IMG/VR virus record: IMGVR_UViG_3300033549_000069
Location: 24,828-88,827 of that record
Reading direction: 5' to 3' (one strand)
Length of the DNA stretch: 64,000 nucleotides
Origin: a virus
Notes under the pieces: model-generated
What the model saw: only the letters and a program-made list of their open reading frames with translations
Told to the model about the DNA's origin: nothing
The model's database searches: none
Made by a program: the position numbers and the translations under genes
Part shown: positions 48,042-64,000 of the stretch, piece after piece
How positions within the stretch are numbered: position 1 is the first letter of the stretch
Layout: each line of letters begins with the position of its first letter

Positions 48042-48371
48042 CTACAGCTCCACGGCGGGCCTCGGGGGGTGCTCGCGCTCCTCCCGGGCCAGGCCGCGCA
48101 AGGCAGCCTTCACGTTGCTCGACCCGCTCACCTTACCGCCGAGCTTTTGCAGGGTGTGTACGACGATGGGGTACAGCGCTAGGCGCAGCTCTGCCACAAG
48201 CGCGTTCACGTCGCCGTCCTTGCCGATGACCGCCTGTGCCTTTGGCGACACCTGCGACCCCGACAGCATGGCGTCGATCAAGCGCTCCACTTCAGCGCGC
48301 CCGGATCGAAACTCCGGCGCTGCCTCTTCCAAAGCACGCCGCACTTCATGAGCCAACCTGCGTAACGTCAT
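48042..48371 (-). CDS. leader-family protein (candidate internal head protein)
   Basis: Start MTLRRLAHEVRRALEEA with GGAGG RBS. Confidence 0.7.
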   Translation of the reverse strand: MTLRRLAHEVRRALEEAAPEFRSGRAEVERLIDAMLSGSQVSPKAQAVIGKDGDVNALVAELRLALYPIVVHTLQKLGGKVSGSSNVKAALRGLAREEREHPPRPAVEL

Positions 48372-48387
48372 GCTTGCCTCCAGGCGT

Positions 48388-48723
48388 CTACTCAACGCCG
48401 ATGTCGCCCCGTGCTGCGCTCTTCATTTCCCTGCCTGCCTTGGCCAACACGCCACCGGAAACCTCCACGCCGGCGACGTCCAGGGCCTTCGCAATCAGAG
48501 CCCGCAAGGGCTCCAACATCAACCCATGGAACATCTCCAACTGGTCCGTGTCGAAGATGCGCCCCGTCAGCGGGTCCAGCTTCGGGCTGTTCAACATGGC
48601 CTTCGCCATGCGGTCTATCAGCCCCGCGTTCACTGCCTCGCCCATCGGTTCGCCGCCGCTCGACAGCTCAACCTCGCGCATGATCTTCCGCATGGTGTTC
48701 ATCTTGGAAATTTTCGCGTTCAT
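48388..48723 (-). CDS. leader-family-like protein
   Basis: MNAKISKMNTMRKIMREVE. Confidence 0.7.
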   Translation of the reverse strand: MNAKISKMNTMRKIMREVELSSGGEPMGEAVNAGLIDRMAKAMLNSPKLDPLTGRIFDTDQLEMFHGLMLEPLRALIAKALDVAGVEVSGGVLAKAGREMKSAARGDIGVE

Positions 48724-48732
48724 CAGATTCTC

Positions 48733-48888
48733 CTATGGCCCGCCTGTGGCTGGGACCGCCGGCAACGGCGCATTGGTGCTCATGGATATCGGCAACGGCA
48801 CAATACCCGACGTGCGAGACCGCCGCAAATCAACCGAAGATTTTCGACCCTTCCTCGTGCTCTGGATCTTCTTTACCTCGACAATCAT
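48733..48888 (-). CDS. 51-aa basic hypothetical protein (not in ORF track)
   Basis: MIVEVKKIQSTRKGRKSSVDLRRSRTSG...; ATGA overlap with the upstream stop. Confidence 0.55.
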   Translation of the reverse strand: MIVEVKKIQSTRKGRKSSVDLRRSRTSGIVPLPISMSTNAPLPAVPATGGP

Positions 48889-49220
48889 CGCGTCTCCCGT
48901 GGCCGCAGCTCCAACACGGCCCCCCGCTCGGTGCGGGTCACCTCGGCATTCCCAATATCTTCCGCCATGCCAAACCGCTTGGCAAGCTGCTGCGCCACAG
49001 ACATCGCATGCCGCCCCTCGATCCGCATAACCAACGAAATCCCACGCGGCCTCTCCACCGCCTCAAACCGATAGCGCGTCACAAGCCGACCTCGTACCGC
49101 ACGCTCCCCCTGAGTCCGCAACGACCGCATTATCCGCTCGTCAGCCTCAGACAGCACAACCCTTCGGGGAGCCGGAGGCAAATCGTCGAGCAAAGCACGC
49201 AATCGGTCGCTTGAATTCAT
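48885..49220 (-). CDS. hypothetical protein
   Basis: 111-aa ORF in operon. Confidence 0.65.
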   Translation of the reverse strand: MNSSDRLRALLDDLPPAPRRVVLSEADERIMRSLRTQGERAVRGRLVTRYRFEAVERPRGISLVMRIEGRHAMSVAQQLAKRFGMAEDIGNAEVTRTERGAVLELRPRETR

Positions 49221-49235
49221 CCTCCACGCATCCCT

Positions 49236-49580
49236 TCAGAGATCGTATGTGGCCACCAACGATGGCTTCCCGTAACGCTCCTTCAACTCCCAGGCGCTCT
49301 TCGTGTGCTGCTTCAACCAGGTCATGGCCTGCCGCAACGTCTCATCCTTCTCGCGCTCCCCAGGCGCGTCCAGATTCACATAGATCTCCACCGTATCAAG
49401 CGCGGTTCTCGACACTCCAACACCGCCCAAGAAGCGCACCTTCCCGCCGATCTCCCGGTTCAAGGCCCGCCCCAACTGGCTCGCCCACTCCTCCATCTCA
49501 CCCCATGACTTCCGAAAATCCGCAACCACTGGCTCCCCGGCATTGGCCCTCGCCTCAAACAGCTTCAGCATGGTTTCCAT
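49236..49580 (-). CDS. leader-family protein, paralog of 51270..51674
   Basis: METMLKLFEA leader; C-terminal LVATYDL. Confidence 0.7.
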   Translation of the reverse strand: METMLKLFEARANAGEPVVADFRKSWGEMEEWASQLGRALNREIGGKVRFLGGVGVSRTALDTVEIYVNLDAPGEREKDETLRQAMTWLKQHTKSAWELKERYGKPSLVATYDL

Positions 49581-49591
49581 GTGCGACCCTT

Positions 49592-50260
49592 TCATACGAT
49601 CAACTGCTCTAGTAGGTAGCGGCCGTCTGCATGGCTGGCGAAATCAGAATGCGCCACAACGCCCGGTCCCGGCTTCGCGTACCACCCCAATGGAGGAGCC
49701 TTCCAGCCAGAGATCTTGGGTGTCTTCGCGTTAAAGTTCTTCGTCGGAAACACATATGGAATCTTCATCAATTCGCACAGCCAAGGAACCAGCGCTTGAA
49801 TGCACGCCACCTGGATTCCAAGCGGTGCCTGGTAGGTCCGCGCATGACCAGGCGGAACCCACGTCCACCAATTCGCCGGCAACACAGGACCGCACGGCTT
49901 CCTTGCGAATTCCGGTCTGTAGGCGTTCACAACCTCGATCCCAACAGAGGTGGAGTTGAGCTGGTTTCCGTGAAAACAAATGTCCAACGCCAAGTCCGCG
50001 TGACACGACAGCAGACCGTCCTTGCCCAAGATCAGATGCACGCCGAGCTTCTTCTCACGCAACGTGTCCTTGCACCCCGTCGCGCTGTTCCCAGCCGTCT
50101 CGTGAAGCACAAGATGCGAAACCTTCGCCGTGCGCGGCTTGTTGCGCAAGCAGGGCTCCTCATCGTCGATGTAGTTGGTGCCACGCACGCCCAGGTCCAA
50201 CACCGCTTTGGGCAGCGACACCTTCTCACCATTCACGATCAAGCTGTTCGAGGGCTGCAT
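49592..50260 (-). CDS. N-acetylmuramoyl-L-alanine amidase (type 2), probable endolysin
   Basis: LVLHETA...GVHL.LG.DG...H......FHG...NS.SVGIE...VVAHSD Zn-amidase motifs; start MQPSNS with GGAGG. Confidence 0.85.
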   Translation of the reverse strand: MQPSNSLIVNGEKVSLPKAVLDLGVRGTNYIDDEEPCLRNKPRTAKVSHLVLHETAGNSATGCKDTLREKKLGVHLILGKDGLLSCHADLALDICFHGNQLNSTSVGIEVVNAYRPEFARKPCGPVLPANWWTWVPPGHARTYQAPLGIQVACIQALVPWLCELMKIPYVFPTKNFNAKTPKISGWKAPPLGWYAKPGPGVVAHSDFASHADGRYLLEQLIV

Positions 50261-50302
50261 GGGGCCTCCTGTCTGCCTACCGTCGTTCACCGCCATCCAT
50301 CA

Positions 50303-50332
50303 TCACCGTCCGTGCGCCGCCGCCGCGTTTTT
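50303..50332 (-). repeat. cassette repeat R4 (KNAAAAHGR*)
   Basis: Degenerate copy of the 3' end of 51684..52298. Confidence 0.7.
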
Positions 50333-50359
50333 ATCCAATTTCATGACATATTCAAAAGT

Positions 50360-50695
50360 TCACTTCTTTGCTCTTTTTCTTGATCCCTTCTTTGCATCAT
50401 TTATAAGAGTCTGCAAAACCATTATAGACAAATATGTTGCAATCTGCTCATCAACATCGGAATCACTCAACCCGTGCTGTTCTGCCTTTTCCTTCACTTG
50501 ATCTATAAGTCGAGCAGCTTCTTTCTCCCATGTGCCTCTTTCGTCGCGCAGTAACCAATCTTTTCCTTCAATGCTTTGCATCTGTTCCGCTGCCATCTTC
50601 ACAATTCTTCTTGGTCGGCCATGATCTCCTCCGAGAGATTGGGCCTCCATTATCTTCTGCATTCCCTCAATCAGACTCTTCATGCTCCGTGCCAT
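50360..50695 (-). CDS. AT-rich leader-family protein
   Basis: MARSMKSLIEGMQKIMEA; flanked by R3 and R4. Confidence 0.75.
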   Translation of the reverse strand: MARSMKSLIEGMQKIMEAQSLGGDHGRPRRIVKMAAEQMQSIEGKDWLLRDERGTWEKEAARLIDQVKEKAEQHGLSDSDVDEQIATYLSIMVLQTLINDAKKGSRKRAKK

Positions 50696-50707
50696 CGCTT
50701 ACCTCTT

Positions 50708-50737
50708 TTACTTGTGCGCAGCCGAAGCCGCGTTCTT
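50708..50737 (-). repeat. cassette repeat R3 (KNAASAAHK*)
   Basis: 23/24 identity to R1 over 50714-50737. Confidence 0.85.
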
Positions 50738-51188
50738 AAATTTCCTTACCCTGAAAACGGAACTTCTGCTCCCATGCTACTTTCCCTGAAGCATCCATAA
50801 TTCTATTGATTCCGAGCTTTTTCAGCTTCTCCATATCTCCGATGTACCATTTCCCATCAAAGACACTCATGCCGTAAAATGCCTGTTTCTCTTTTGCGAA
50901 TTCCTTCGCCATTTCTTCATTGCCAACCTTGACCATGGACTCCATCTGGAGTCTCTCAAACAACTGGCGCATCCCATTCGATGCCAGTTGTTCGGACTGC
51001 TCAACTGGGCTCACTTCCACATGCCAACCAATGGTGGCGCCATGCACGCCCCACTTTTTCATCGCTTTCCCGATGGCGTGCTTCTTCGCATCTTTCCCAG
51101 GATTCGTCTTCACGACACCCAAAAGCTTCTTAACCCCTTCATCCGGGATCACCTGATACGCATTCCAGGACTGTAGCTCTATTCCCAT
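50736..51188 (-). CDS. AT-rich protein with an internal leader-like motif
   Basis: Internal MRQLFERLQMES at about residue 73; flanked by R2 and R3. Confidence 0.75.
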   Translation of the reverse strand: MGIELQSWNAYQVIPDEGVKKLLGVVKTNPGKDAKKHAIGKAMKKWGVHGATIGWHVEVSPVEQSEQLASNGMRQLFERLQMESMVKVGNEEMAKEFAKEKQAFYGMSVFDGKWYIGDMEKLKKLGINRIMDASGKVAWEQKFRFQGKEI

Positions 51189-51208
51189 GACGCTCTCCTT
51201 TTCATCTA

Positions 51209-51256
51209 CCGTGAGCAGCCGAAGCCGCGTTCTTGCCCGCCGTTGTCAGACTCAAC
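51209..51256 (-). repeat. cassette repeat R2 (LSLTTAGKNAASAAHGR*)
   Basis: 45/48 identity to R1 (51694-51741). Confidence 0.9.
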
Positions 51257-51269
51257 AGCATCTAAAGCT

Positions 51270-51674
51270 TCAGAAATCATAGGTGGCAACAAGCGCAAAC
51301 TTTCGGTTCCGCTTTGCCTTCACCCATGTGCTATTCGTTAAATTCTGTAACCTGACCAACGCCATATCAAATACATCTTCTTCATCCAGCGTGCCAAGCA
51401 TATGAAAACTCAATACCACCTCCACAGCATCACCCACTCCCTTGGCTACACCAATACTTCCCACGATCTTGACGCCATCTCCAATACTCTTAGTCAACCG
51501 CTTCCCGATGTCATCCGCCCACACGGACAACCCACTCCAAGCGTTCCGTATCGACGTTGCATACGGTTCATTCGGATTCGTCATAGACTCTCCCAATAAT
51601 CTAATCGTTCCAATGCCTGCAACGTCATCGGATGCTGCCTTCAACTGCTCAGCCAGCTTGCGCATCGTGGACAT
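51270..51674 (-). CDS. AT-rich leader-family protein, paralog of 49236..49580
   Basis: MSTMRKLAE...LLGES; flanked by R1 and R2. Confidence 0.75.
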   Translation of the reverse strand: MSTMRKLAEQLKAASDDVAGIGTIRLLGESMTNPNEPYATSIRNAWSGLSVWADDIGKRLTKSIGDGVKIVGSIGVAKGVGDAVEVVLSFHMLGTLDEEDVFDMALVRLQNLTNSTWVKAKRNRKFALVATYDF

Positions 51675-51683
51675 TCGTCTCTC

Positions 51684-52298
51684 CTAACGTCGTCCGTGAG
51701 CAGCCGAAGCCGCGTTCTTGCCCGCCGTCGTCAAGCTCAACGCCCCTGCCTTGTTCCGTGCAATCCATCCACGCTCGACCAGCGCGTCCACCTCGCCCGG
51801 CTGCACCTTCATGTCCGCGAACAGCTCCTTGCGATAGCTCGACGTCATCGCCATGCTCCGCAGGATGCCCGCCTCACGATCCGTCATCTCCACGGCCCCC
51901 GGCAGCAACGGCACCACGCTGTCGGGATGCACGTAGATCGTCGCGTAGGTGCCCCGCCCGCCACTCGACCCCACGATGGCCACGCCGTCCCGAGGCAGCG
52001 GATGCTCGCCACGATCCTGGTCGATAGAGGGCTTCCCCACCGGGCTGTACCCGCCCCAGTCGCCCTGCACCGTCTTGGTCGCGCCCGTGGCCAGGTTCAC
52101 CAGCACCGCGAAGCCCCGCTCCCCGTCCCCCGCGTAGGGGTTCAGGCTGACCAGCGCCTGCGGCACCACCGCGATGTCCCGGCTCCGGTAGCCCACGTCC
52201 TTCAACGCCTTGCGCAGCACGTCCGGCAGCTCCTTCACGAGCACCTCCGTGCCACGGGCCTCCATGATCCGCTCCACTCGCTCGATCAAGTGCCTCAT
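51684..52298 (-). CDS. leader-family protein whose 3' end is repeat R1
   Basis: MRHLIERVERIMEA; ends ALSLTTAGKNAASAAHGRR. Confidence 0.8.
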   Translation of the reverse strand: MRHLIERVERIMEARGTEVLVKELPDVLRKALKDVGYRSRDIAVVPQALVSLNPYAGDGERGFAVLVNLATGATKTVQGDWGGYSPVGKPSIDQDRGEHPLPRDGVAIVGSSGGRGTYATIYVHPDSVVPLLPGAVEMTDREAGILRSMAMTSSYRKELFADMKVQPGEVDALVERGWIARNKAGALSLTTAGKNAASAAHGRR

Positions 52299-52711
52299 CC
52301 GATCCTCCCAATGGCTTTCTTCAAACGATCCACCTGCCCCCGTAGACGCTCATAACTCTCCACCACAGCAGATGGATCCGATGCCGTGGTTCCAGCCTTT
52401 CGCACCCTCATCCACGCCGACTCGAACGCCTTGTAAGCGGCATCCATGTCGGTAGCTATGTCCTCAATTTCGTGGGCAAGCTCGTCGTTCCCAACGTCCA
52501 GGAGACCGGAAAAGACTCGGTCGGCGATCCGCCGGGCATTGCGATAGACGTCCTCCGCCGTGTTCCTGTCCTCAAGCGCAATCTCGTTGGATCGAACACG
52601 CGGGATCGCACGAATTTCCATAGAAAACTCCGCTATCTGCCTGATGGCGACATTCGCACTGCGGGCCTCCATGATCCGTTCAAACCGCTCGATCAAGGTT
52701 CTCATCGTCAT
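52295..52711 (-). CDS. leader-family helical protein
   Basis: MTMRTLIERFERIMEA; leader DNA 37/44 identical to that of 51684..52298. Confidence 0.8.
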   Translation of the reverse strand: MTMRTLIERFERIMEARSANVAIRQIAEFSMEIRAIPRVRSNEIALEDRNTAEDVYRNARRIADRVFSGLLDVGNDELAHEIEDIATDMDAAYKAFESAWMRVRKAGTTASDPSAVVESYERLRGQVDRLKKAIGRIG

Positions 52712-52726
52712 GGCTCTCTCCTATCC

Positions 52727-53305
52727 CTACTTGCCATGCAGGTCATTGTAGCTCTTCCAGTTCAACTGCGGCGACTTCTCCGACATCGTGACCTTCATCG
52801 GCCCGAACTTGCCCGTCACCATCACGGACTTCTGCGAGACTTTGGTCACCGTCTGGTAGCTGCCCGAGAGCACCACCCACACGACATCGCCCACCTTCAC
52901 CTGGTCGGCCCGCGTAATGGCGTTCTCCCGGCCGCGCTCCTTGGCCTGCGCCGCTGCCGCATCCTTCTCCGCTGCCTGCTGCGCCAGGAAGATCGCCATG
53001 TCGGCGTCAGGATGCACGTCCGCGTCCTTGCGCTGGAACTTCCCCTCGGCAAACGCCTTCAACACCGCCTGCCGCCACTTATCCTTCGCCGCCGCCGACG
53101 CCTCCCACTCCCCCGCCCGCTTCTTGTCGTACTGCGCCTTGGCACTCTTGCTCATGTGCGCGTACTGCATCGGGCTGATCTCAGCGACCCAGGGCTCATG
53201 GACGTTCAAGGCCGCCTGATACGCCGACGCCCCCACCGTCCAGGGACGATCCAAGATCCACTCCCTCCCCTCGACCGCCTCGAACAGGGATCGCATGGTC
53301 GTCAT
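52727..53305 (-). CDS. leader-family protein with a C-terminal SH3/KOW-like barrel
   Basis: MTTMRSLFEA; ADQVKVGDVVWV......VTKVSQKSV. Confidence 0.75.
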   Translation of the reverse strand: MTTMRSLFEAVEGREWILDRPWTVGASAYQAALNVHEPWVAEISPMQYAHMSKSAKAQYDKKRAGEWEASAAAKDKWRQAVLKAFAEGKFQRKDADVHPDADMAIFLAQQAAEKDAAAAQAKERGRENAITRADQVKVGDVVWVVLSGSYQTVTKVSQKSVMVTGKFGPMKVTMSEKSPQLNWKSYNDLHGK

Positions 53306-54102
53306 CTGCCAAATGCCTCGGCGAAGAGATTCACGACATTCTGTGCCGTAACCATCCCTGCCCGCATCCGAACATCGCGTTCCACGCGCTGTAGGCCATC
53401 AGCCGCTTTCCAGCTCGCGTTGATCAGAACCTCGTGACCATCCCCTGTTCCCGTAACTAAACTCCCCTGCCACTCCAGATCGAAATCACTGCGATTCTGC
53501 CCCTTGTACTCCACCCAGACAGTGTTGCGCGAGCGCTCCACATTGACGGACTCGGCATGGCCACCCGCCAATTTCTTGATGCCCGCCGCCACCTCTTTAC
53601 AGAACATCTCCAAGGCATCGCCCTCGAAGTCGGCCCAGGTACGTCCCGATCCGCTGGCCTCGTCGATCCGTGCTTCGGACAGGCCCCTGTGGCCACAGAC
53701 CACTCGAACGTCCTCGTAAATAGATACCGCTTTTTTAGGAAATTCTATTTGGTAGTAAACATAGTTATCAACATCGTCATGTCGCCACACCCATATTTTA
53801 TTTTCACTTCCAATCGTCCTGACTAAAACAGCTTCGATGTCATCCTCAAGATCATACGCCTCTCCAGGATATTTTTTCCATGGAACACCAAAGACAAAAC
53901 GCACGTTCATTGGAGGAGAATGTATTCCAACCTTCCAGTCATGCAGCCCGCGTCCCATCTTTTTCAAAACAAACTTGTTCAACGCCGACTTGACATCATC
54001 TACACTAACGCCTTCGGACAGGCTCCTGTGGCCACGTCCCGCTGCCACGTCGCCCTCGACCAGCGCCCTCATGTCCTTCACCAATGTTCGCATCGTTGCC
54101 AT
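53302..54102 (-). CDS. leader-family two-domain polyprotein-like protein
   Basis: MATMRTLVKDMRALVEG; GHRSLSE...GHRGLSE direct repeats flank an AT-rich 113-codon module. Confidence 0.8.
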   Translation of the reverse strand: MATMRTLVKDMRALVEGDVAAGRGHRSLSEGVSVDDVKSALNKFVLKKMGRGLHDWKVGIHSPPMNVRFVFGVPWKKYPGEAYDLEDDIEAVLVRTIGSENKIWVWRHDDVDNYVYYQIEFPKKAVSIYEDVRVVCGHRGLSEARIDEASGSGRTWADFEGDALEMFCKEVAAGIKKLAGGHAESVNVERSRNTVWVEYKGQNRSDFDLEWQGSLVTGTGDGHEVLINASWKAADGLQRVERDVRMRAGMVTAQNVVNLFAEAFGR

Positions 54103-54112
54103 GGCTCACTCC

Positions 54113-54550
54113 TTATCGCGCTACGTCGCTCACGCTCCGGCGCACCTTGGGAAACATCATGTTCATCGACCGCAACGGGACCGATCCCGCTGCCGTCCAG
54201 CCCACCGCCGTCAGGATCATCTCTACCGCTGCGAGGTCCGCGTCCTCGGCCTCCACCACCACCCCCACGTCCGCCGTCTTCACGTACCAGAACCCAAAGC
54301 CCATCCGCGACCACCGCACATGCACGTCCGCCGCCTCCGCCGGATCGTTCGGCACGATGACCACCACGCGCACCTCCCCCACCGGGCGCTTGTTCGCCCC
54401 CAGGAGCGGCGCCCACAGGCGAGCCGTAGCACGAGCAGCCCCCTGGCTCGGGCGCGGCTGTGGGGCCTCACGGGCCGTCAGGCGACGCTCCAGCAGCATC
54501 GCCCGCACGCGATCCAGGATGCCCGCCGCGACCTGTGCCCGTTCATCCAT
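54113..54550 (-). CDS. hypothetical protein (leader-like RAMLLE)
   Basis: 145-aa ORF with AGG RBS in operon. Confidence 0.65.
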   Translation of the reverse strand: MDERAQVAAGILDRVRAMLLERRLTAREAPQPRPSQGAARATARLWAPLLGANKRPVGEVRVVVIVPNDPAEAADVHVRWSRMGFGFWYVKTADVGVVVEAEDADLAAVEMILTAVGWTAAGSVPLRSMNMMFPKVRRSVSDVAR

Positions 54551-54558
54551 CAGTGACC

Positions 54559-55152
54559 CTACCTCCGCTGGGCCATCCAGGCCCGCGACGTCGTGAGCAA
54601 CTGGTCAGCCGCCTTCTGCAAGCTGTGCAAAGCCGCATCCCGCTGTTTCCAGTTCTTCTTCTTCTCCTGGTCCTGTGCCAGCTCGAAATCATCGACAACA
54701 GCGATCACCCACCGGCCAATGTCCGACATCGTCCCGCTGGTGGAGGCTTCCTGGTCCTTGGCATACGCCTCGACGTGCTTCCGCACCCAGGCGTTTTTGC
54801 CAAACACGGACGCCACGACGCGCTTCACGTCCGCCATCTTGGGATTGAACACCCGGCCATACGCAGCCGTATCCGGGGTCGGCAACGTGTCCTTCAATTC
54901 CGCCGCCACCAGATCGCCAAAGTTCATCCCGCTCTTCGAGTCCAGGTAGTTACGGATCGCCGCCGACGATACGTCTGGCATCTCGGACATGATCAGGCGA
55001 AATGTCTCCGCCCAGATCGCGTCCGCGTTTTCAAACCGGAACTCGATCCGTCCGAAGTACCCGTAGTCCCGCTGCTCGGTCGGCAAGATCTGGCCCTGCC
55101 GCTTCATGGTCGCCTCGGTCAACAGGCCGGATAGTCGTCGCATCGTCGTCAT
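54559..55152 (-). CDS. leader-family protein
   Basis: MTTMRRLSGLLTEA. Confidence 0.8.
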   Translation of the reverse strand: MTTMRRLSGLLTEATMKRQGQILPTEQRDYGYFGRIEFRFENADAIWAETFRLIMSEMPDVSSAAIRNYLDSKSGMNFGDLVAAELKDTLPTPDTAAYGRVFNPKMADVKRVVASVFGKNAWVRKHVEAYAKDQEASTSGTMSDIGRWVIAVVDDFELAQDQEKKKNWKQRDAALHSLQKAADQLLTTSRAWMAQRR

Positions 55153-55187
55153 GGCATCCTCCAGGCGAACCCAGGTTCGCGTCTATG
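55140..55187 (-). repeat. cassette repeat P1, containing palindrome copy 10 (55163-55182), RBS and ATGACGACGATG
   Basis: 44/48 identity to 55735-55782. Confidence 0.9.
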
Positions 55188-55291
55188 TTCCTTACTGGTC
55201 AGAAGCGATCCTAGTCATGCTTATATCCTTTGAGGAATTGATATTCCATGTCATGGCTTTCCTCCAAGTGATTACAGATCGTTTCAACAAA

Positions 55292-55747
55292 TCACCTGAC
55301 TGAAAAATCAGATAATTTCATCGCAAACAAATCACTATCTTCAGTACGGTCCAAGACTCCTTTCACCTCATCAACCACGCGTCCAATGATCACTTTCCCA
55401 CGCGCATTCCGCTTTTCATGTTTCTTGCCCTGTTCAGAATAAGTCTTCCCGGTGTCATCAAGTAACTGCGCAAGCAATTCGATCCTGTCATCATTAATCG
55501 TAAAACTGATTTCTGCCCACCGCCCATCGACAATATCCGTCGAGAACTGCACATCCCACTGGTTTGATGATGCGTCATATCCAGCAAGGTTGAGTGTCTT
55601 GGAGAAGTCCAATGCCACACTGGGTAATTTCCACTTCCGCGCCAGATCCGTTGCCAATCGCAGCAGAACACCACTGACAAGAGATTTTTTAGTATTTCCT
55701 TTGCCCAGCAAAACCAACCCCTCGATCAGTGTCCGCATCGTTGTCAT
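55292..55747 (-). CDS. AT-rich leader-family protein
   Basis: MTTMRTLIEG; flanked by P1 and P2. Confidence 0.75.
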   Translation of the reverse strand: MTTMRTLIEGLVLLGKGNTKKSLVSGVLLRLATDLARKWKLPSVALDFSKTLNLAGYDASSNQWDVQFSTDIVDGRWAEISFTINDDRIELLAQLLDDTGKTYSEQGKKHEKRNARGKVIIGRVVDEVKGVLDRTEDSDLFAMKLSDFSVR

Positions 55748-55782
55748 GTCATCCTCCGGGCGAACTCAGGTTCGCGTCTATG
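55735..55782 (-). repeat. cassette repeat P2, containing palindrome copy 11 (55758-55777)
   Basis: 44/48 identity to 55140-55187. Confidence 0.9.
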
Positions 55783-56506
55783 CTTCAGCCTGCACATAGG
55801 CAAACACGTCTTCCATCTTCGGCTTGCGCTTCCGCGTCTTCTTCACCGGCTCCGCTCCCTGTGGAGGCGGCGCAACCGACTTCTTGCCCTTGCCCGCCTT
55901 CGGCTTGGCCTTCGCCTTCTCCCCGCCGGATCGCGCCCCCGCCTTCTGCGCCTGCGCCGTGGCATAGGCGTGGCTCTCGCCGCCCTTGACGTGCTTCTTG
56001 TAGGTGTCCTGGGACGCCTTCCACGCCGCGTCCCCCGCCTTGCGGCCCTTGGTGTCCGCCACCTTCTTCGCCGCCGCATGGGCCTTCTTGCCCGCGTCCG
56101 TGAACCGATACGCCGCGCCCTGCACCGCCCGCTTGGCCGCCACGCCCTTCTGGACCGCCTTCTGCGCCCCCGCCACGGCCTTCTTGGCCGCGCCCCCCAC
56201 CACCTTGCCGCCCTTCACGATCTTGCCGAATACCATCTTCGCGCCCGGCGGCAACTTGCTCGCAATCTGCGTCTTCTTCTTGGCCATCCAGCTCCGAAAC
56301 CCCTCCAGCATATCGTCCTGGTCTTCGGATAGCGCCCCCGCCTCCGCCGCACCAATGAGCTGGGCCATGATCGCCAGACGCTCCACATCTTCCTCGTCGA
56401 ACACCTCGTCCAGAAGATCGTCGTCTGCTGCCAGGATCGCCTCGAAGAACTCCGCCTCATCCTGGGCAGTCTCCATGCTCTCAAACAGATCGTTCATGGT
56501 CGTCAT
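55778..56506 (-). CDS. leader-family protein with an acidic pro-region and a Lys/Ala-rich histone H1-like body
   Basis: MTTMNDLFES, ~65 aa D/E-rich segment, then AKKAVAGAQKAVQKG...KAKAKPKAGKGKK. Confidence 0.8.
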   Translation of the reverse strand: MTTMNDLFESMETAQDEAEFFEAILAADDDLLDEVFDEEDVERLAIMAQLIGAAEAGALSEDQDDMLEGFRSWMAKKKTQIASKLPPGAKMVFGKIVKGGKVVGGAAKKAVAGAQKAVQKGVAAKRAVQGAAYRFTDAGKKAHAAAKKVADTKGRKAGDAAWKASQDTYKKHVKGGESHAYATAQAQKAGARSGGEKAKAKPKAGKGKKSVAPPPQGAEPVKKTRKRKPKMEDVFAYVQAEA

Positions 56507-56518
56507 GGCAGTGCTCCT

Positions 56519-58051
56519 TCAGTCCAACATGCTGTAGGCGTGATAGTCCAGATCCGCTGCCGACATCGCCCGCAACAGCTCCCGGAACGTCATGCCCTTG
56601 ATCTCCGCTTGGTGCGACCCCACCCACGCATAGAACCGCGCAATCGCAGTCTTCTTCGCGCCGCCTACCGGCGGAATCACCGCCGTCACGTCCTGGCCGT
56701 CCGTCCCCGGCCGGGGCTTCTCCATCACGTCGAATTCCGTGCGCGACGCCTTCAGCGTGAACGTCGGCGTCTCGACCTGGATCGCGGACCCCGCCGCCGG
56801 TGCCATCGGCTCCACATCGACCCCGCGAAGATCGCGCTCCTCAATGCTCGCAAACGACATCCCGCGCTGTGAATCCTTCGCCGCTACCCCACGGGCAATG
56901 GCCACCGCCTGCGCATAGGTCTTCGCCTTCACGATGGCCTTCAACGCCTCGTTGATCTTCGCCACGTCCTTGGGATCGCGCTGGCCGTAGTCCAGGTTGA
57001 ACAGGGCGAACTCGGGGCACTTCTTGCCGCGCTTCCCCGCATTGGTGACGTCCGTCACGCGCAGGCTGGAATTGAAGCGGTGCATGCGCAGGTTGTCCCG
57101 CTCGATGGTCTGCCCCACTGCCAACCCCGCCTGCTGGTCAACGTAGAGCATCTCCTCGGCCTCGGGCAGCGCCGCTCGCCCCTCCCGCGCCACGTCCTCT
57201 TCCCGCACCTTGGACAGCGCCTTGAAGGCTGCCTCGTGCGCTCTGTACCCATCCTTGGTCAGCCGCTCGAATGCCGCCTCGACCTGCTTCCACCAACCGG
57301 CTACAGCCTGCCCCGCCGCTGCCGCCGACTTGAACTCCTTGCCGTCGAACATCGCCTCCCAGGTGGGCAGTCCCTTGCGGTCTACGCGCCACGCCTTCCC
57401 CGCATCGTCCTCCTGAATGATGCGCAGCGGCACGTCAACTGACCCCAACTTGAAGGTCCGCCCGTAGGCCGTCCGCTTGCCATTCGGGCTCGGGTGCTCG
57501 TCCCAGCCCTTGAGGTACAGCGCCTGGGCCTGCTTGTGCATGTCAAACGCCATCTCTTCGCCCATCGCCGCTGCCCCGCCCGGATCCACCATGTCCTTGC
57601 GTGCCCGTATCGCCGTCGAAAACTTGGGCGCGAAGTCCTTGGTCAGCGTCCCCTCCCGCGTCTTGTCCATGACCTTTTCCGCTATCGCGGTCGCGGCCCG
57701 CAACGCCTCCCGGTTCTCCTTGCGCTTCGGATCGCGGAGCAAGTCGACCTTGTGCGCATACGGCTTCGTGCTCAGCTTGGCCATCTCCGGCACGCCGCTG
57801 ATCAACTGCCAGTCGCCCTTGGGATTCTTCCACAGCGTCACAGCACCGCCGGTCTTCCCATCGACCCACACCACCCACTCGTCGGCCTTCGACGAATACT
57901 CAATCTCGTACCCAGCCTGCTCCATCATGACGGAAAGGAGATTGACGATGCGCCTGGCTTCTTCCGCCGCCGCCTTCTCGCCCTTGCCCTCGTATTGAAT
58001 CTCTCTCGCGGAAGCCATCAGATGGTTGAGTCTCTTAATCAGTCGTCTCAT
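56519..58051 (-). CDS. large multi-domain leader-like protein
   Basis: MRRLIKRL start with GAGGAGG RBS; C-terminal LRVTDVTNAGKRGK domain; function not recognised. Confidence 0.75.
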   Translation of the reverse strand: MRRLIKRLNHLMASAREIQYEGKGEKAAAEEARRIVNLLSVMMEQAGYEIEYSSKADEWVVWVDGKTGGAVTLWKNPKGDWQLISGVPEMAKLSTKPYAHKVDLLRDPKRKENREALRAATAIAEKVMDKTREGTLTKDFAPKFSTAIRARKDMVDPGGAAAMGEEMAFDMHKQAQALYLKGWDEHPSPNGKRTAYGRTFKLGSVDVPLRIIQEDDAGKAWRVDRKGLPTWEAMFDGKEFKSAAAAGQAVAGWWKQVEAAFERLTKDGYRAHEAAFKALSKVREEDVAREGRAALPEAEEMLYVDQQAGLAVGQTIERDNLRMHRFNSSLRVTDVTNAGKRGKKCPEFALFNLDYGQRDPKDVAKINEALKAIVKAKTYAQAVAIARGVAAKDSQRGMSFASIEERDLRGVDVEPMAPAAGSAIQVETPTFTLKASRTEFDVMEKPRPGTDGQDVTAVIPPVGGAKKTAIARFYAWVGSHQAEIKGMTFRELLRAMSAADLDYHAYSMLD

Positions 58052-58053
58052 CA

Positions 58054-58094
58054 CGTCCTCCTCATGTCACGCTCAGCAGGGCGAATTCCGTCAC
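58054..58094 (-). repeat. T3: orphan copy of the tail tube 3' end (TEFALLSVT*) plus RBS
   Basis: 29/32 identity to 58566-58597. Confidence 0.85.
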
Positions 58095-58134
58095 GGACGA
58101 ACACTCAGTCCTGCGGATAATCAGCGTCCTTGCT

Positions 58135-58563
58135 TTACTTCCTCTGAGTTGAGACAATCCGAACGCCATGAATCAAGAGATTACCACTTCCTTTTATGTC
58201 TATCGCTGCGTTCCAAGGGAACGCCCGTTTTGTCCAATTACTTAATTTCTCAAAATACTCGTCATATGCGCCAGTATTAGGTTTCAGTGCCTCGGGTGGC
58301 GCGACCACCTCGATTTCCATACTAAGCATATTCCCATTCGGAGAAATATCGACATTCACATCCAACCCCCGTAGTCCCATGATGGCATCCAACTCCAGCA
58401 AGATCTCGTGCTCTACTTTGCGTATGAGACCATTCAGTTCTGAATGATTCTTCTCAATCTGCTTGAACATGTCAGGAACCTTGGACTTACCCATGGCACC
58501 ACTGGCCTCATCCATCTCTATCGACCCAATAACGTCCTGAATCTGTTCGATCAACTTCCTCAT
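58135..58563 (-). CDS. AT-rich leader-family protein
   Basis: MRKLIEQIQ...MDEA; flanked by T2 and T3. Confidence 0.75.
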   Translation of the reverse strand: MRKLIEQIQDVIGSIEMDEASGAMGKSKVPDMFKQIEKNHSELNGLIRKVEHEILLELDAIMGLRGLDVNVDISPNGNMLSMEIEVVAPPEALKPNTGAYDEYFEKLSNWTKRAFPWNAAIDIKGSGNLLIHGVRIVSTQRK

Positions 58564-58573
58564 CGCGTCCTCC

Positions 58574-59587
58574 TCACGTCACGCTCAGGAGCGCGAATAG
58601 CCCATGCTTACGCTCACTGCGCATTGTCTCGATACTATCACCCCACAACCACTGGCCCCACAAGCGAGCACGATCTCCATACAGAACAACGGTGTGTCTA
58701 TCCGCATGCGTTTTCTTACGTGCCTTGCCATGCTGAACCTTCGGCCGCCGACCAGCGATCTGCGCCATCCGATCTGCAATGGACTCAATGATCGATTTCG
58801 CTGCAAGCCCAATCCCGATGACAGGCTTCATCGGATCACGCCCCACCCATCCATCCGCATCGAACAGACCGCGCAAAAAATGTGTCTCCAATTCGACTGG
58901 CAGAGACCTCGGCCACACCAGCGTGCGCGCCTTAGCAGGCGTCACCCCCCACCGTGCGATGTTCCGTGCCAACCGCATGCTTCCGATCTCTGCAATGAAA
59001 CATCCGCCTTTTTTATTGACCGGATGCTCACTGCCAAGAATCGCCAACACCTTGCACACGACATCCTCATCCCCACACACACCTACGCCATGCTCCACAC
59101 CATTGGCCCGAGCAATCCACCCGTTTCCGTAAATGACCCCCAGCGCCCATGCCCGTGGAACGTCTAGCTCCCCATCGAAGGCCGCCTCGTTGACCGCGTA
59201 CTGGCGCATACGCTGCGAAGTCGCATCCGCTGCCAATATCGCCGCCTCTTTCCGAGTACGTAGGATGCCCGCACGCTCTATGACGCCCATCACAAAGCCA
59301 ACCGGAACACCCATTTCTTTGGCAATAGCCGTCGTCCCCATCCCGTCGCAATACAGCGCCTCGGCCTGCTCACATACCGCTCTCCCACGGAATCGTCCAA
59401 GCCCTCGCTCCACCGCCAACGCATGCGATGCCGCATGACTCCTCATGCGCATCCCAGAAGCAGTTACCCAGTTGCTAACGGACTGCACCGAGGCACTCAT
59501 ACGAGTTGCCACCGCTCCCAAGGATTCCCCGCCAACGTATGCGGCTACCGCTTCCATCCGTTCCTGCTCACTAAATCTCTTTCCCAT
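58574..59587 (-). mobile_element. free-standing double-motif LAGLIDADG homing endonuclease with N-terminal HTH repeats
   Basis: Start MGKRFS at 59587 (GGAGG); VNEAAFD...WALGVIYGNG and HFLRGLFDADGWV; ends FALLSVT like the tail tube. Confidence 0.85.
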
Positions 59588-59622
59588 GGCACACCTCCGA
59601 TTTGGAGATTGTACCGTTTTCT

Positions 59623-60186
59623 TTACGTAACAGACAAGAGACAAAACTCGGTCATCGCGTGAGCTTGCACATCGAGTTCCATGATGCTCACATCCCCCGT
59701 CATCGCGTCCAGGTCCGTGCCCGCCTTGTAGCGGATCGGTATTGCGTCCCACAACAACCAAGCTCGGCCCGGCAGGAACTGCGCGACCTCCCACGCCTCG
59801 ATGGCCACGGGCAGGTCCACGCTCACCCCCAGGGCGTTCGCCACGTTGATGTTCGTGTACTGCAACAGCAGCAGGTTGCGCGGCACCATGTCGTACCCAC
59901 GAATCGCCCGCTCTACCCACATCATGAACGTGTCGTCATACGCCCTCGCACCGCGCGTCAGCGTGATCTGCCCAACACTCCCGCCGCTGTAGGCGTACCG
60001 CTTGTACATTGAGTTGACCTGCTTGATCTCGTCCACCTCAAGCGTCACCTCCGGCATCGTGATCGACTGGAATCCCATGATAGGGGCTCCCATCACGTAG
60101 AACGGAAACGTCGAGGAAGGGATCATGTCTACCAGCCAAAAGCGGTAGGACTGAAGCAGATCTTCCAATGGATGGCGACTCGGCAT
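59623..60186 (-). CDS. tail tube protein 2 (T4 gp19-like)
   Basis: GFQSITMPEVTLEVDEIKQ...VGQITLTRG...F..W...P..YK.GTDLDA..GDV.I.EL. Confidence 0.85.
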   Translation of the reverse strand: MPSRHPLEDLLQSYRFWLVDMIPSSTFPFYVMGAPIMGFQSITMPEVTLEVDEIKQVNSMYKRYAYSGGSVGQITLTRGARAYDDTFMMWVERAIRGYDMVPRNLLLLQYTNINVANALGVSVDLPVAIEAWEVAQFLPGRAWLLWDAIPIRYKAGTDLDAMTGDVSIMELDVQAHAMTEFCLLSVT

Positions 60187-60225
60187 GTGGGTATCACGCG
60201 GCCTCCTCGCCCGCCGCCTCGTGTA

Positions 60226-60765
60226 CTATTTGGTCAGCAGTTCGAAGCTCTCCAACGCGAAGTCCACCTCGGCCAGCGATACCTCGCCGGACATCGAATC
60301 GAAATCCGCCGCCGGCTTGGCTCTGGTCGGAGCGCAGTTGTGGCAAAGCACCCGCCGCATGTCGGTACTGGTCGCCGACTTCGATGCGCTGCCCATCTCC
60401 GCCCTCTGGTAATGCCAGATCGTGACGTCCATGCGGTACTCGACGCCCGTCACTGCCCCGTAAACCCAGTCGAAGAACGCGGTGTCCTTCTTGGCGATGC
60501 CGCGCATCAGCGTGCAGTCGCTCACGGTCGGGGGGCCAGGGTACTTCTGCGTCCAGGTGAAGGTGCCCTCGCGGTACTCCACCGGCTCCAACGACAGCTC
60601 GGGCAAGGTCACGCTCTGGAACCCTGCCTCTGCCCCGCCCTCGAACGGCTCGCCGCCTTCCGCGCCACGGATGAACCCAGGCTGGAGAAGATCCTTGCCA
60701 TCGCGGTTCTTGCCACGGACGTGGAATCGGAATCCCTGCATCAGATCGTCTACTGCTGCGCGCAT
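60226..60765 (-). CDS. tail tube protein 1 (T4 gp19-like)
   Basis: AGFQSVTLPELSLEPVEYREG...KYPG.....TLMRG....FFDW...DFDSMSGEV...EV. Confidence 0.9.
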   Translation of the reverse strand: MRAAVDDLMQGFRFHVRGKNRDGKDLLQPGFIRGAEGGEPFEGGAEAGFQSVTLPELSLEPVEYREGTFTWTQKYPGPPTVSDCTLMRGIAKKDTAFFDWVYGAVTGVEYRMDVTIWHYQRAEMGSASKSATSTDMRRVLCHNCAPTRAKPAADFDSMSGEVSLAEVDFALESFELLTK

Positions 60766-61298: not shown

Positions 61299-64000
61299 TT
61301 ACTTCAAGCTTTTTTGTGAGAATCTGAACACGATGAACTCGGCGGGCTTGTTCGCTGCGATGCCAACGTCGCAGTACACGATGCCCTGATCGACCGTGTT
61401 CTGCGGGTTGTTGGTGCGATTGCACACCACGAAGAACGACTCCTCCGGTGTGTTCCCCGCGAAATATCCGCCCTGCTGGAGGCCAGCCAGGAACGTCACC
61501 AACTGCGTGCTGATGTCGTTCCAAAGCTGCGGACCGTTGTTCTTGAAGACGTGGATGTGTGTCGATTTGAAGACCGACTTCTCCACGAACATGAACAGTC
61601 TCCGCATCTGGAGGTACGGCCACTCGCCGCCGGAAGCGTCCAGCGACCTCGCGCCCCAAACCACACGTCCCGTCTGCGGCCACTGCACAAGGCAATTGAT
61701 CTTGTTCTCTGTCAACACGCCCACCTGTGCAGGAGTCAACGTGTACTCAAGACCAGTGGCCCACGCCAGAACGCCGTCTTCCATGCCCGCCGGAGCCTTG
61801 CCCACGTTCTTCGCCGCATCGGTACGCGCATAGACGCCAGCAACGTGACCGCCCGGAGGCACGTCCACATTGGTGCCCGTGAGCGGGTCGCGGATCTTGA
61901 TGTGGGGGTAGTACATCGCGCCGAAGCTGGAATAGCGATTCAGCGTGAAGCGCTTCCATGTCACCGCCGTCTGGTACTCCATGCCAAATGGCACCGTCGC
62001 AATGACGAACTTGTCCTTCATCAGCTCTGCGTAGGTGAGCAAGGTGTCGATGACGTAGGTGTCCGTCTGGAAATCCGCAGCCACAAGCTGCATCAACTCG
62101 TCCACCTGGCCAAAGCTGTACAGGGCTCGCATGTCCGCCGCGAGTAGCGGGCTCACGATGTCGTCCGAATCCGTGGCGCTTCCGTCCGAGCCGCCATCAA
62201 ACAGGCCCAAGATGCTGCTCTGTGGAACGGTGTAGTAGTCCGCCGTCTGTCCGCCACCGAAGCCGTCCGTGCCGTTGATGGTCTCTACAGTGATGCCCAA
62301 CGCCGTCAGGCCCACCGTGAAGTCCAGCTCGGAAAGAACACCTGTGGTCGGAGACGTGATCGTGAACGACCCGTCGATGTTGGCCGTCACGTCCGCCGTG
62401 GTCGCCAGCTCCACCGCCGCCTTCACCTCTGTGTTCAACACCGCGTCGATGTTGGCCACGTTGCCCGTGCCCGCCGTGGTGCCAGCCGTATGCCCGATGA
62501 GCGTCGCCAGGTTCGGAGACCCCGCGATGATCTGCACCGACGATCCCGTGCCCGCGCTGTCGGACTTGATGTCCACGCCCGTGCCGCCGCCGGTCTCCAC
62601 CGCGCTACCGCCGGAGATCACGCCGTTGATGAGGTTGGCGATCTCCAGGGCAAGCGTGAGGCCCGCGCCCGCCGTGACTACGTAGGAGTTGCCGTCGATC
62701 ACGATGGTGCAGTTCTCGCCGCCCGTCGTGGCGACAATCGGGAACACCGCACCGCCAACCCGAGTCGCCTTCGTGCCCGTGAAGGCCACCGCCACCGCGC
62801 CCGCCCCGTTCACCTTGACCGAGAAAGAGTCACCCGTGTTCAGATTGTATGGGCCAACTGCGCCGACCTTGGCCGCTGCCGTGGGCGAGGTCGCCACGCC
62901 GCAAGGACCAGCGCCGGGATTCCCGGAAATCTTCCAGGTGAGAGTCAGCTCTCCAGAAGCATAGTCGATGGTGTTCGTGCCAGAGGCGTTGAGTTGGAAC
63001 TTCCCGGGGACGCCTACGAGCGGCGGGGTCAACGAGGCCGGATCGACGATGTACGCATTGCCCTGTCCGTCGTCTCCCACCGTCACAGGCTGCGCATAGA
63101 CGCAATCCAGAAGCAGCGGGCTGTTCGCCACGAAGGTGTCCGCCATGGGCGTGATGTCGAGAACGATGGCTCCGGTCGTGTAGTTCACCGTTCCGACCTG
63201 GGTCGCGCCGGACATGATGTGCGAAGCACCGTCGTCGGTCAACGTGGTGGCTCCCGCTCCCGTCAGCGTGCAGGTGATTTGGACGCTGTTCGCATCCACC
63301 GCCGCCTGCTGCCAGGTGAGGATCGGAACCGCCGAAGCCGGGCTCGCGCCAATTCCGATGGACAGCGCCAGCGGGCCTCCAGGGCTCGAAGGATTGCCCT
63401 CGACGAATTGGAACTCCGCCTTCAACGTGGTCGGAGATACCTCGTTGGCGAGGATGTACTTCCAGCCCTTCCAAACACCGTCGTAAGCGGCCGGCACGGT
63501 GCCAGACCCATCGCTGTGCTGCTGCATCGACGAGAGATCCTCGCCCGTGATGGCATCGCCTGCCAGCTCCGGCGGATTGATCTGATTGCCGTAGTCCGTG
63601 ACGCGAACGTACTGCGACCCGTTGATCGCATCGTTCATGACGAGCACGATGTAGTTCTTGCTGGTCGGATCGTCGAGCACCACGTCCGCGAATGTCTCCA
63701 ACGTGGACCAAGATCGATTCAGCGGATCTCCGTTTAGGTCTTCCTGCACAACTGCGGTATGCCGCGTCCACCTGGCCTGTGCGGAGACCATGTAGTCGTC
63801 GCTGCCGTTCTGGAGCTGCACGCGGAAGTTGTCGCCGACCACGCCCGGCCACTTCATCTCGAAGCGCAAGACGCGATACGTGTAAGCCGCCGTGATCGAG
63901 TTCGGCGCTCCGGTGAACTCACCGGGAACCGCCAACTGGATCGACACCTCGCCGGTCACGTAGTCGATGGACCCAGAGCCACCAGATCCCGCGCCAACCG
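61299..64000 (-). CDS. tail sheath protein (5'-truncated by the window edge)
   Basis: YYPHIKIRDP, VPPGGHVAGVYARTD..KNVGKAPAG, VVWGARSL...YLQMRRLF.FVE, KPAEFIVFRFSQ; frame open to 64000. Confidence 0.95.
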   Translation of the reverse strand, partial: VGAGSGGSGSIDYVTGEVSIQLAVPGEFTGAPNSITAAYTYRVLRFEMKWPGVVGDNFRVQLQNGSDDYMVSAQARWTRHTAVVQEDLNGDPLNRSWSTLETFADVVLDDPTSKNYIVLVMNDAINGSQYVRVTDYGNQINPPELAGDAITGEDLSSMQQHSDGSGTVPAAYDGVWKGWKYILANEVSPTTLKAEFQFVEGNPSSPGGPLALSIGIGASPASAVPILTWQQAAVDANSVQITCTLTGAGATTLTDDGASHIMSGATQVGTVNYTTGAIVLDITPMADTFVANSPLLLDCVYAQPVTVGDDGQGNAYIVDPASLTPPLVGVPGKFQLNASGTNTIDYASGELTLTWKISGNPGAGPCGVATSPTAAAKVGAVGPYNLNTGDSFSVKVNGAGAVAVAFTGTKATRVGGAVFPIVATTGGENCTIVIDGNSYVVTAGAGLTLALEIANLINGVISGGSAVETGGGTGVDIKSDSAGTGSSVQIIAGSPNLATLIGHTAGTTAGTGNVANIDAVLNTEVKAAVELATTADVTANIDGSFTITSPTTGVLSELDFTVGLTALGITVETINGTDGFGGGQTADYYTVPQSSILGLFDGGSDGSATDSDDIVSPLLAADMRALYSFGQVDELMQLVAADFQTDTYVIDTLLTYAELMKDKFVIATVPFGMEYQTAVTWKRFTLNRYSSFGAMYYPHIKIRDPLTGTNVDVPPGGHVAGVYARTDAAKNVGKAPAGMEDGVLAWATGLEYTLTPAQVGVLTENKINCLVQWPQTGRVVWGARSLDASGGEWPYLQMRRLFMFVEKSVFKSTHIHVFKNNGPQLWNDISTQLVTFLAGLQQGGYFAGNTPEESFFVVCNRTNNPQNTVDQGIVYCDVGIAANKPAEFIVFRFSQKSLK

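Follow-up and report, generated by a model that had tools for sequence, protein, structure and literature searches.

Why does the 3' end of a phage tail-tube gene occur three times within one short region, and why does a homing-endonuclease open reading frame (ORF) lie between two of the copies? This question is raised by a 64,000-nucleotide stretch of viral DNA (hereafter the window; positions 24,828 to 88,827 of the 106-kb IMG/VR record IMGVR_UViG_3300033549_000069), in which the second of two tail-tube genes is followed by a LAGLIDADG ORF. By comparing the window with related loci (designated by L numbers), we found that a cassette has been inserted into the end of the tube gene, that the cassette supplies a substitute gene end, and that its ORF continues in phase into the native end that was displaced. 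The architecture is conserved among related phages, and the insertion is polymorphic. The sequence comparisons lead us to propose, with a probability of roughly three in four, that a 1047-nucleotide homing-endonuclease cassette replaced the end of the tube gene and spreads by homing.

Three copies of a tube-gene end

The C-terminus of the tube protein is encoded three times, at the positions that an earlier note on this DNA had reported (T1, T2, and T3; see Table 1). The tube gene now ends in T1, of which the last seven codons (59626-59646) have a G+C content of 38% and are followed by a TAA stop codon (59623-59625). T2, consisting of seven codons with a G+C content of 67% and a stop codon (58574-58597), is read as the end of the 337-residue endonuclease ORF (...GLFALLSVT). 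T2 and T3, each taken with the ribosome-binding site (RBS) and the next start codon, are identical at 36 of 40 positions and lie 512 nucleotides apart. A 20-nucleotide probe covering the tube end and the RBS matched the 64 kb at the places of T2 and T3 only (0.02 matches expected by chance).

T1 lies outside the cloud of endonuclease-free alleles, and T2 and T3 lie inside it. The window T1 differs from these alleles at 9-11 of 21 positions (7-12 for the T1 copies as a group), T2 and T3 of the window differ from them at 2-7 (2-8 when the copies are taken as a group), and the alleles differ among themselves at 1-8. Against L002, whose tube flank is 94% identical, T1 has 11 differences in 21 positions (binomial P ~4e-8). 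The earlier note had described the present gene end as recoded and proposed a comparison with relatives lacking the endonuclease. In this comparison, the TGT and TCT codons of the window occur in none of five endonuclease-free tube ends (L002, L004, L049, L050, and L051), all of which have an Ala codon GCN after the Phe codon and a Ser codon AGY. Among 18 closer tube homologs from a large database (72-97% identical), Cys follows Phe only in the endonuclease-bearing one.

L002 is a precise empty site. Its tube gene is 97% identical to that of the window (flanks 94%) and ends in NEFALLSVT in GC-rich codons, and the 511-residue gene, whose first 130 nucleotides are 100% identical to those of the window, is directly next. 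In comparison with L002, positions 59644-58095 of the window are extra DNA; homology stops at 59645 and resumes at 58094. L035 contains only part of this DNA. Its T1 and spacer agree with the window letter for letter, its endonuclease is 96% identical, and its T2 runs straight into the 511-residue gene; neither the 142-residue gene nor T3 is present. Therefore, the endonuclease cassette and the 142-residue cassette are independent insertions. The former occupies 59644-58598 on the minus strand, at a Phe codon seven codons before the tube end, and consists of T1 with its TAA, a spacer of 35 nucleotides, and the LAGLIDADG ORF without a stop codon of its own. Because the cassette brings its own T1, the tube protein is complete with one conservative change (Ala to Cys), and because the ORF uses the native stop codon of the tube gene through T2, the next gene retains its native stop-RBS-start junction. 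Together, L002 and L035 support the earlier proposal of an element inserted into the 3' end of the tube gene, with a respelled end of its own and fused to the old one. The insertion codon is the same in the window, L035, L036, and L003, and the element is missing in L002, L004, L049, L050, and L051.

All endonuclease homologs with a recovered context lie directly downstream of the second tube gene. Besides L035, they are L036 (90% identical, spacer included), L003 (55%), L032 (47%), L028 and L030 (46%), and L039 (35%); in L033 and L034 (69%), only the end of the endonuclease and the downstream gene are visible. With the exception of L039, the loci share a TAA stop codon at the end of the tube gene, a conserved spacer, and a stopless ORF that continues in phase into an old tube end like those of the local clade. 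As the fused end, L003 has FALLSVQ, L032 has FTLLSPL, and L028 has ...LLSALDPI, which is nested; among endonuclease-free relatives, the kin of L032 have EFTLLSPL and the kin of L028 have EFTLLDPI. In L028, the old end seems to consist of an earlier remnant to which the local end has been joined. In the case of L039 (1-4226), the endonuclease follows the tube gene with no recognisable old tube end, and an N6-adenine methylase-like gene, not a leader gene, lies downstream; this arrangement may be the ancestral, free-standing state.

The respelling of T1 may allow the carrier to escape cleavage, but it could also have been favored for another reason, namely to prevent recombination between T1 and T2 from deleting the endonuclease, so that only cassettes with diverged repeats would survive. 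T1 and T2 are indeed direct repeats 1 kb apart, and at least two different T1 respellings stand behind near-identical enzymes (T1 of L036 differs from that of the window at 10 of 21 positions), as if any divergence would do. However, of the five distinct spellings of T1, four are altered from the codon directly past the junction onward (Cys or Ser in place of Ala or Thr), the exception being L036, where Ala is retained; this pattern also fits escape of a recognition site. As the target is already split by the insertion, either pressure could act, and both may act together. That the respelling served against deletion and not against cleavage is a tentative possibility that we consider somewhat unlikely.

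The endonuclease and the spacer hairpin

Structure prediction identifies the ORF as a two-motif LAGLIDADG homing endonuclease. In Pfam, the protein matched HTH_23 and LAGLIDADG_3 (23.2 bits against a cut-off of 22.5; 25.7 bits in another search), and among the PHROG families it matched phrog_4645 (endonuclease) at 3.8e-16. In an AlphaFold2 model built from seven homologs (predicted local distance difference test score, pLDDT, 80), an alpha-beta-beta-alpha-beta-beta-alpha fold occurs twice, giving a pseudo-symmetric core, and residues 318-337, including the tube-derived tail, are disordered (pLDDT below 50). A Foldseek search with the model matched the TliVMA intein endonuclease at 1e-7, and the probability was 1.00 for the endonuclease domains of TliVMA, PI-PfuI, and PI-SceI as well as for I-Tsp061I, I-DmoI, I-OnuI, and I-AniI. 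The fold search was needed, as a search of the PDB by sequence only gave weak matches to I-Tsp061I and PI-PfuI. The two LAGLIDADG motifs (residues ~147-157 and ~236-247) are conserved in all seven aligned homologs. The final Asp of the second motif is present in seven of seven; the corresponding residue of the first motif is Asp (GDG) in P0003-P0006 and Asn (GNG) in the window, P0001, and P0002. Elsewhere in the 106-kb record, we found no second LAGLIDADG gene and no further perfect copy of the hairpin arm.

Since the nearest structural matches include intein-borne LAGLIDADG enzymes, and since the tube gene of L036 seems to contain an intein-like insert at another place, the element might be regarded as a degenerate intein or group I intron that was once spliced from the tube protein or gene. 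However, a TAA, a 35-nucleotide spacer, and a separate RBS lie between the tube gene and the ORF, and searches of Pfam and NCBIfam gave no Hint domain. The T2 residue after the junction is Ala instead of the Cys, Ser, or Thr of an intein. A group I or group II intron ribozyme gave no Rfam match at E <= 1 in 57900-60300, where the 35 nucleotides are the only non-coding room. An origin from a spliced element is thus effectively refuted already.

Within the spacer, the RBS of the ORF is paired in a predicted hairpin (-15.3 kcal/mol; z-score -4.05). Equivalent hairpins in L036, L003, L028, and L032 have energies of -15.6 to -19.5 kcal/mol and z-scores of -3.2 to -5.7. The hairpins are therefore significantly stable in five lineages, the support being their stability relative to shuffled sequences; only one of 13 pairs shows a double change, and the sequence is too conserved for covariation to be informative. 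The 5' arm includes a -10-like hexamer, TACAAT, preceded by TG in four of the five lineages. A candidate sigma-70-type promoter that would overlap T1 (TTGTCT and TACAAT separated by 18 nucleotides) was rejected, because three matches to this pattern against 1.7 expected in the region are not above chance.

Proposed homing, loss, and persistence of the cassette

If the cassette homes, its features would fit together as follows. With its RBS hidden by the hairpin, the ORF should be translated into little enzyme from the tube mRNA, even though this mRNA is heavily transcribed. When phages with and without the cassette infect the same cell, the enzyme would cut or nick the uninterrupted tube end of the latter, and repair would copy the cassette into the cut phage. 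The carrier itself would be protected, both because its site is split and because T1 has seven differences among the 12 bases on the right of the junction. T2, together with the RBS and the conserved leader codons, would be the only dependable homology on the right-hand side, beside a hypervariable gene array; the hypervariability downstream would explain why T2 is kept and is matched to the local clade.

Both alleles occur in the same samples. Contigs of four public runs (X1, X2, X6, and X9) were placed on the region, where 58079-58563 of the window has no contig coverage in any of the four. In run X1 (sediment), the tube gene is joined to the 511-residue gene without an insert at a word depth of 65, and the contig with the endonuclease and T1 has a depth of 6.6; in run X2 (soil), a 20.8-kb contig with an uninterrupted EFALLSVT and a different downstream gene has a depth of 105, and the endonuclease contigs have 6.5, although contig depth is not a measure of copy number. 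Run X9 contains the empty junction of the L002 type, and run X6 contains an L036-like form. Thus, two of the four runs (X1 and X2) include both alleles.

Several features of the endonuclease point to a long association with each phage clade. The ratio of nonsynonymous to synonymous substitution rates (dN/dS) is 0.14-0.20, indicating purifying selection, and the ORF is intact in three diverged copies. Its G+C content tracks that of the host phage (0.58, 0.51, and 0.38), and the quartet of endonuclease identities agrees with the quartet of both tube genes. This congruence and the amelioration of the endonuclease to each host would also be expected if inheritance were purely vertical, with the cassette present in the common ancestor of the clades and then lost precisely and repeatedly, without any gain by homing. 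However, the tube end of L002 is not T1, T2, or a chimera of them, so it is not the product of a deletion between T1 and T2. In addition, the agreement of T2 with the local endonuclease-free alleles, clade by clade, needs continuing exchange with them, and the nested old end of L028 suggests re-insertion. We consider a purely vertical history very unlikely.

Other observations weigh against homing, and we state them together. In the enzymes of the window, L035, and L036, GNG replaces GDG in the first motif. The replacement of this Asp by Asn usually abolishes the cleavage of at least one strand, as known from work on PI-SceI, I-CreI, and I-DmoI; the enzyme of the window may thus be limited to nicking or be inactive. 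The genome also contains T3, which nearly reproduces the presumed target without an interruption and is no farther from the endonuclease-free alleles than these are from one another; an active and tolerant enzyme should cut it. Between the window and L035, synonymous divergence amounts to 0.10 in the endonuclease (24 changes) and 0.17 in the tube gene (15 changes); these values look too close to call and so do not make the endonuclease younger than its flanks. The patchy distribution could therefore reflect losses instead of recent horizontal spread. The spelling of T1 in L036 means that T1 is not always inherited with the enzyme. Finally, the comparison material consists of metagenome contigs throughout.

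The Asn residue, the tolerated near-intact target T3, and the lack of a significant excess of similarity in the endonuclease over its flanks would all be expected if the element were a fossil or had been domesticated, that is, if the enzyme of the sub-lineage of the window made no double-strand breaks and persisted as a nickase, a DNA-binding regulator, or a passenger. The three gene ends would then be relics of past events, and homing would no longer be under way. We regard this explanation as unlikely. The ORF is intact in three diverged copies at a dN/dS of about 0.2, the regulatory hairpin is conserved, and both forms co-occur in samples. Moreover, nicking enzymes can home, for example MobA (bioRxiv 10.1101/2022.08.31.505936).

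The MobA/gene 60 cassette of T4-like phages is the nearest published phage analog of the proposed homing cassette. It too is a free-standing endonuclease with extra sequence that keeps the interrupted essential gene working and shields the carrier (Bonocora et al. 2011, as summarised in bioRxiv 10.1101/2022.08.31.505936). MobA, however, belongs to the HNH nickases, its host gene is divided into two parts, and the protection comes from a 50-nucleotide insert that is bypassed by ribosomes (bioRxiv 10.1101/2022.08.31.505936), whereas here a substitute gene end is supplied and there is no translational recoding. Seg and Mob genes, which home without an intron, come next. They are likewise free-standing beside a conserved target gene, with an RBS hairpin and a promoter-like element in its 5' arm; RBS-sequestering hairpins regulate T4 homing endonucleases, with embedded late promoters in I-TevI, SegB, and MobE (Edgell, Gibb and Belfort 2010, PMC2988022). 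Seg and Mob genes differ in being intergenic, without a duplicated gene end (PMC2988022), and the putative promoter here is only a weak consensus match.

The same arrangement of parts is found in the 'gene hybrids' formed by mobile ORFs (mORFs) of fungal mitochondria, in atp6 of Allomyces macrogynus and in atp6, atp9, cox2, and nad3 of Glomus sp. (Beaudet et al. 2013, PMC3630166, where the Allomyces work is cited). There, as here, the core of the gene is followed by an inserted substitute C-terminus, a LAGLIDADG (or GIY-YIG) ORF, and the displaced native C-terminus, the native copy resembles element-free relatives, and the inserted copy has diverged mostly at the DNA level (PMC3630166). In contrast to the mORFs, the present host is a phage structural gene, only seven codons are duplicated, and the displaced end retains the RBS of the next gene. 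Furthermore, mORFs such as those of Glomus atp6 and nad3 are in phase with the upstream gene, whereas the ORF here is a separate cistron with a hairpin-masked RBS, fused to the downstream remnant.

In the open-access literature, we found no published description of an end-replacing endonuclease cassette in a phage. The present case means that a homing endonuclease needs neither an intron nor an intein to settle in the coding part of an essential structural gene: it brings a substitute gene end and takes over the old one as its own terminus. The published examples that we found are all mitochondrial. The locus is a natural allelic series (empty, endonuclease only, and endonuclease with an extra cassette) and spans three diverged phage clades with at least two independent T1 respellings and a conserved translational hairpin. 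Therefore, target recognition, self-immunity, and the need for a right-hand arm can be tested with synthetic substrates. In annotation, a short orphan copy of a gene end, or an endonuclease ORF with an odd disordered tail, can be taken as a sign of such a cassette.

The second cassette and the neighboring genes

The genes of the region are all on the minus strand (Table 1), and the tube homologs (48-97% identity) are also found in the context sheath-x-tube-tube. Downstream of the endonuclease ORF, there is an array of small genes with an MRxLIE-type N-terminal leader in common.

Table 1. Features of the tail-tube region of the window, in order of transcription
Feature	Position	Strand	Remark
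Tail sheath	61299-63998	-	First in transcription order
163-residue gene	Between sheath and first tube gene	-	Second in order
First tube gene, T4 gp19-like	60226-60765	-	Third in order
Second tail-tube gene, 187 residues, T4 gp19-like	59623-60186	-	Pfam PF06841 at 1.5e-7; completed by T1
T1, replacement tube end, FCLLSVT and TAA	59623-59646	-	5' edge of the inserted cassette; tube ends in ...MTEFCLLSVT
Spacer, 35 nucleotides	59588-59622	-	Hairpin 59588-59615 pairs GGAGG RBS (59594-59598) and abuts ATG
Free-standing LAGLIDADG homing-endonuclease ORF, 337 residues (predicted)	58574-59587	-	Two N-terminal helix-turn-helix (HTH) domains, two-motif nuclease core, disordered tail formed by the old tube end
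T2, displaced native tube end, FALLSVT and TGA, then native RBS for the next gene	58564-58597	-	In-frame C-terminus of the endonuclease
142-residue gene, MRKLIE leader	58135-58563	-	Separately acquired cassette; absent from L002 and L035
3' flank of the 142-residue cassette	58104-58128	-	Common to L004; out of frame here
T3, SVTEFALLSVT and TGA (58062-58097), RBS to 58052	58052-58097	-	Uninterrupted last 11 tube codons; abuts the 511-residue gene
511-residue leader-family gene	56519-58051	-	Directly after tube in L002; directly after T2 in L035

T3 is probably a scar unrelated to the endonuclease, in which a tube end was duplicated next to a swapped-in leader-gene cassette; duplications of this kind let cassettes move by short-repeat recombination. 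The earlier note had attributed the leader-family gene to a separate insertion at the same site as the endonuclease. The insertion is indeed separate, as L035 lacks the 142-residue gene, but the site is only approximately the same, as T3 keeps 11-12 tube codons and its breakpoint is about five codons upstream of the endonuclease junction. The 142-residue protein gave no Pfam or PHROG match, and no homolog beyond itself was found.

L004, which has a tube gene 88% identical to that of the window and no endonuclease, has a second tube end (T') with an RBS and a leader after its first leader gene. The 25 nucleotides upstream of T' are common to the stretch upstream of T3. In L004, this flank encodes the end (DADYPQD) of a different gene of 201 residues; in the window, it is the 25 nucleotides next to the stop codon of the 142-residue gene (58135). 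The comparison suggests that the body of the cassette was exchanged and its 3' flank was kept. A perfect direct repeat of 51 nucleotides surrounds the 201-residue leader gene (L004:6551-6601 and 7213-7263) and consists of the tube end, stop codon, RBS, and first nine codons of the leader, which suggests gene conversion or the recent insertion of a cassette.

The PeSL (promoter early stem-loop) cassettes and mini-circles of T4-type phages resemble T3 in that accessory genes come and go singly between short repeats with expression signals, and recombination between such repeats yields circles that can reintegrate (Arbiol et al. 2010, PMC2839356). The repeat here differs, being a tube coding end with an RBS and leader codons instead of an early promoter with a terminator stem-loop (PMC2839356).

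T2 with its RBS and leader codons could be a portable right-hand homology arm at the border of the array; breaks at the tube end would then drive the gain, loss, and hitch-hiking of the first cassettes, and T1, which overlaps the promoter-like element, might be a non-cleavable operator for autorepression, like the I-TevI operator. We consider this extension improbable. If true, a homing endonuclease could spread where no other downstream homology exists.

Other changes were observed in related tube genes. The genes of L005 (6540-6615; 204 residues) and L006 (6540-6585; 194 residues) have unrelated C-terminal extensions, and L005 keeps EFC as in the endonuclease-bearing alleles. We considered L005, with EFC and a 19-residue extension, as a scar of deletion and rejected this reading, because we found no nucleotide or protein similarity to any endonuclease cassette. 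In L036 (1-697), and also at a loose contig end in run X6 (window 59733), there is a large in-frame insert in the same tube gene; the L036 contig begins inside it. The insert gave no Pfam or NCBIfam match. It ends in ...AILGN just before the Cys of a conserved D-C-IPTRYK, as in inteins, where the window has Ala.

In L052 (1-4424), a LAGLIDADG_1 protein is encoded before the sheath gene, and a 303-residue protein with three HTH domains and a PD-(D/E)XK-like motif is encoded between the sheath gene and the 163-residue gene. The latter protein was considered as a counterpart of the present element at the sheath gene and rejected, because it carries no copy of the sheath end; neither of the two L052 nucleases bears a copy of the end of a neighboring gene.

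The genes after the tube gene (48042-58563 in the window, and in related loci) all start with an MRxLIE-type leader, even where the tube proteins are only 57-62% identical. The L-x-E ending of this leader resembles T4 prohead-protease sites and capsid-targeting sequences.

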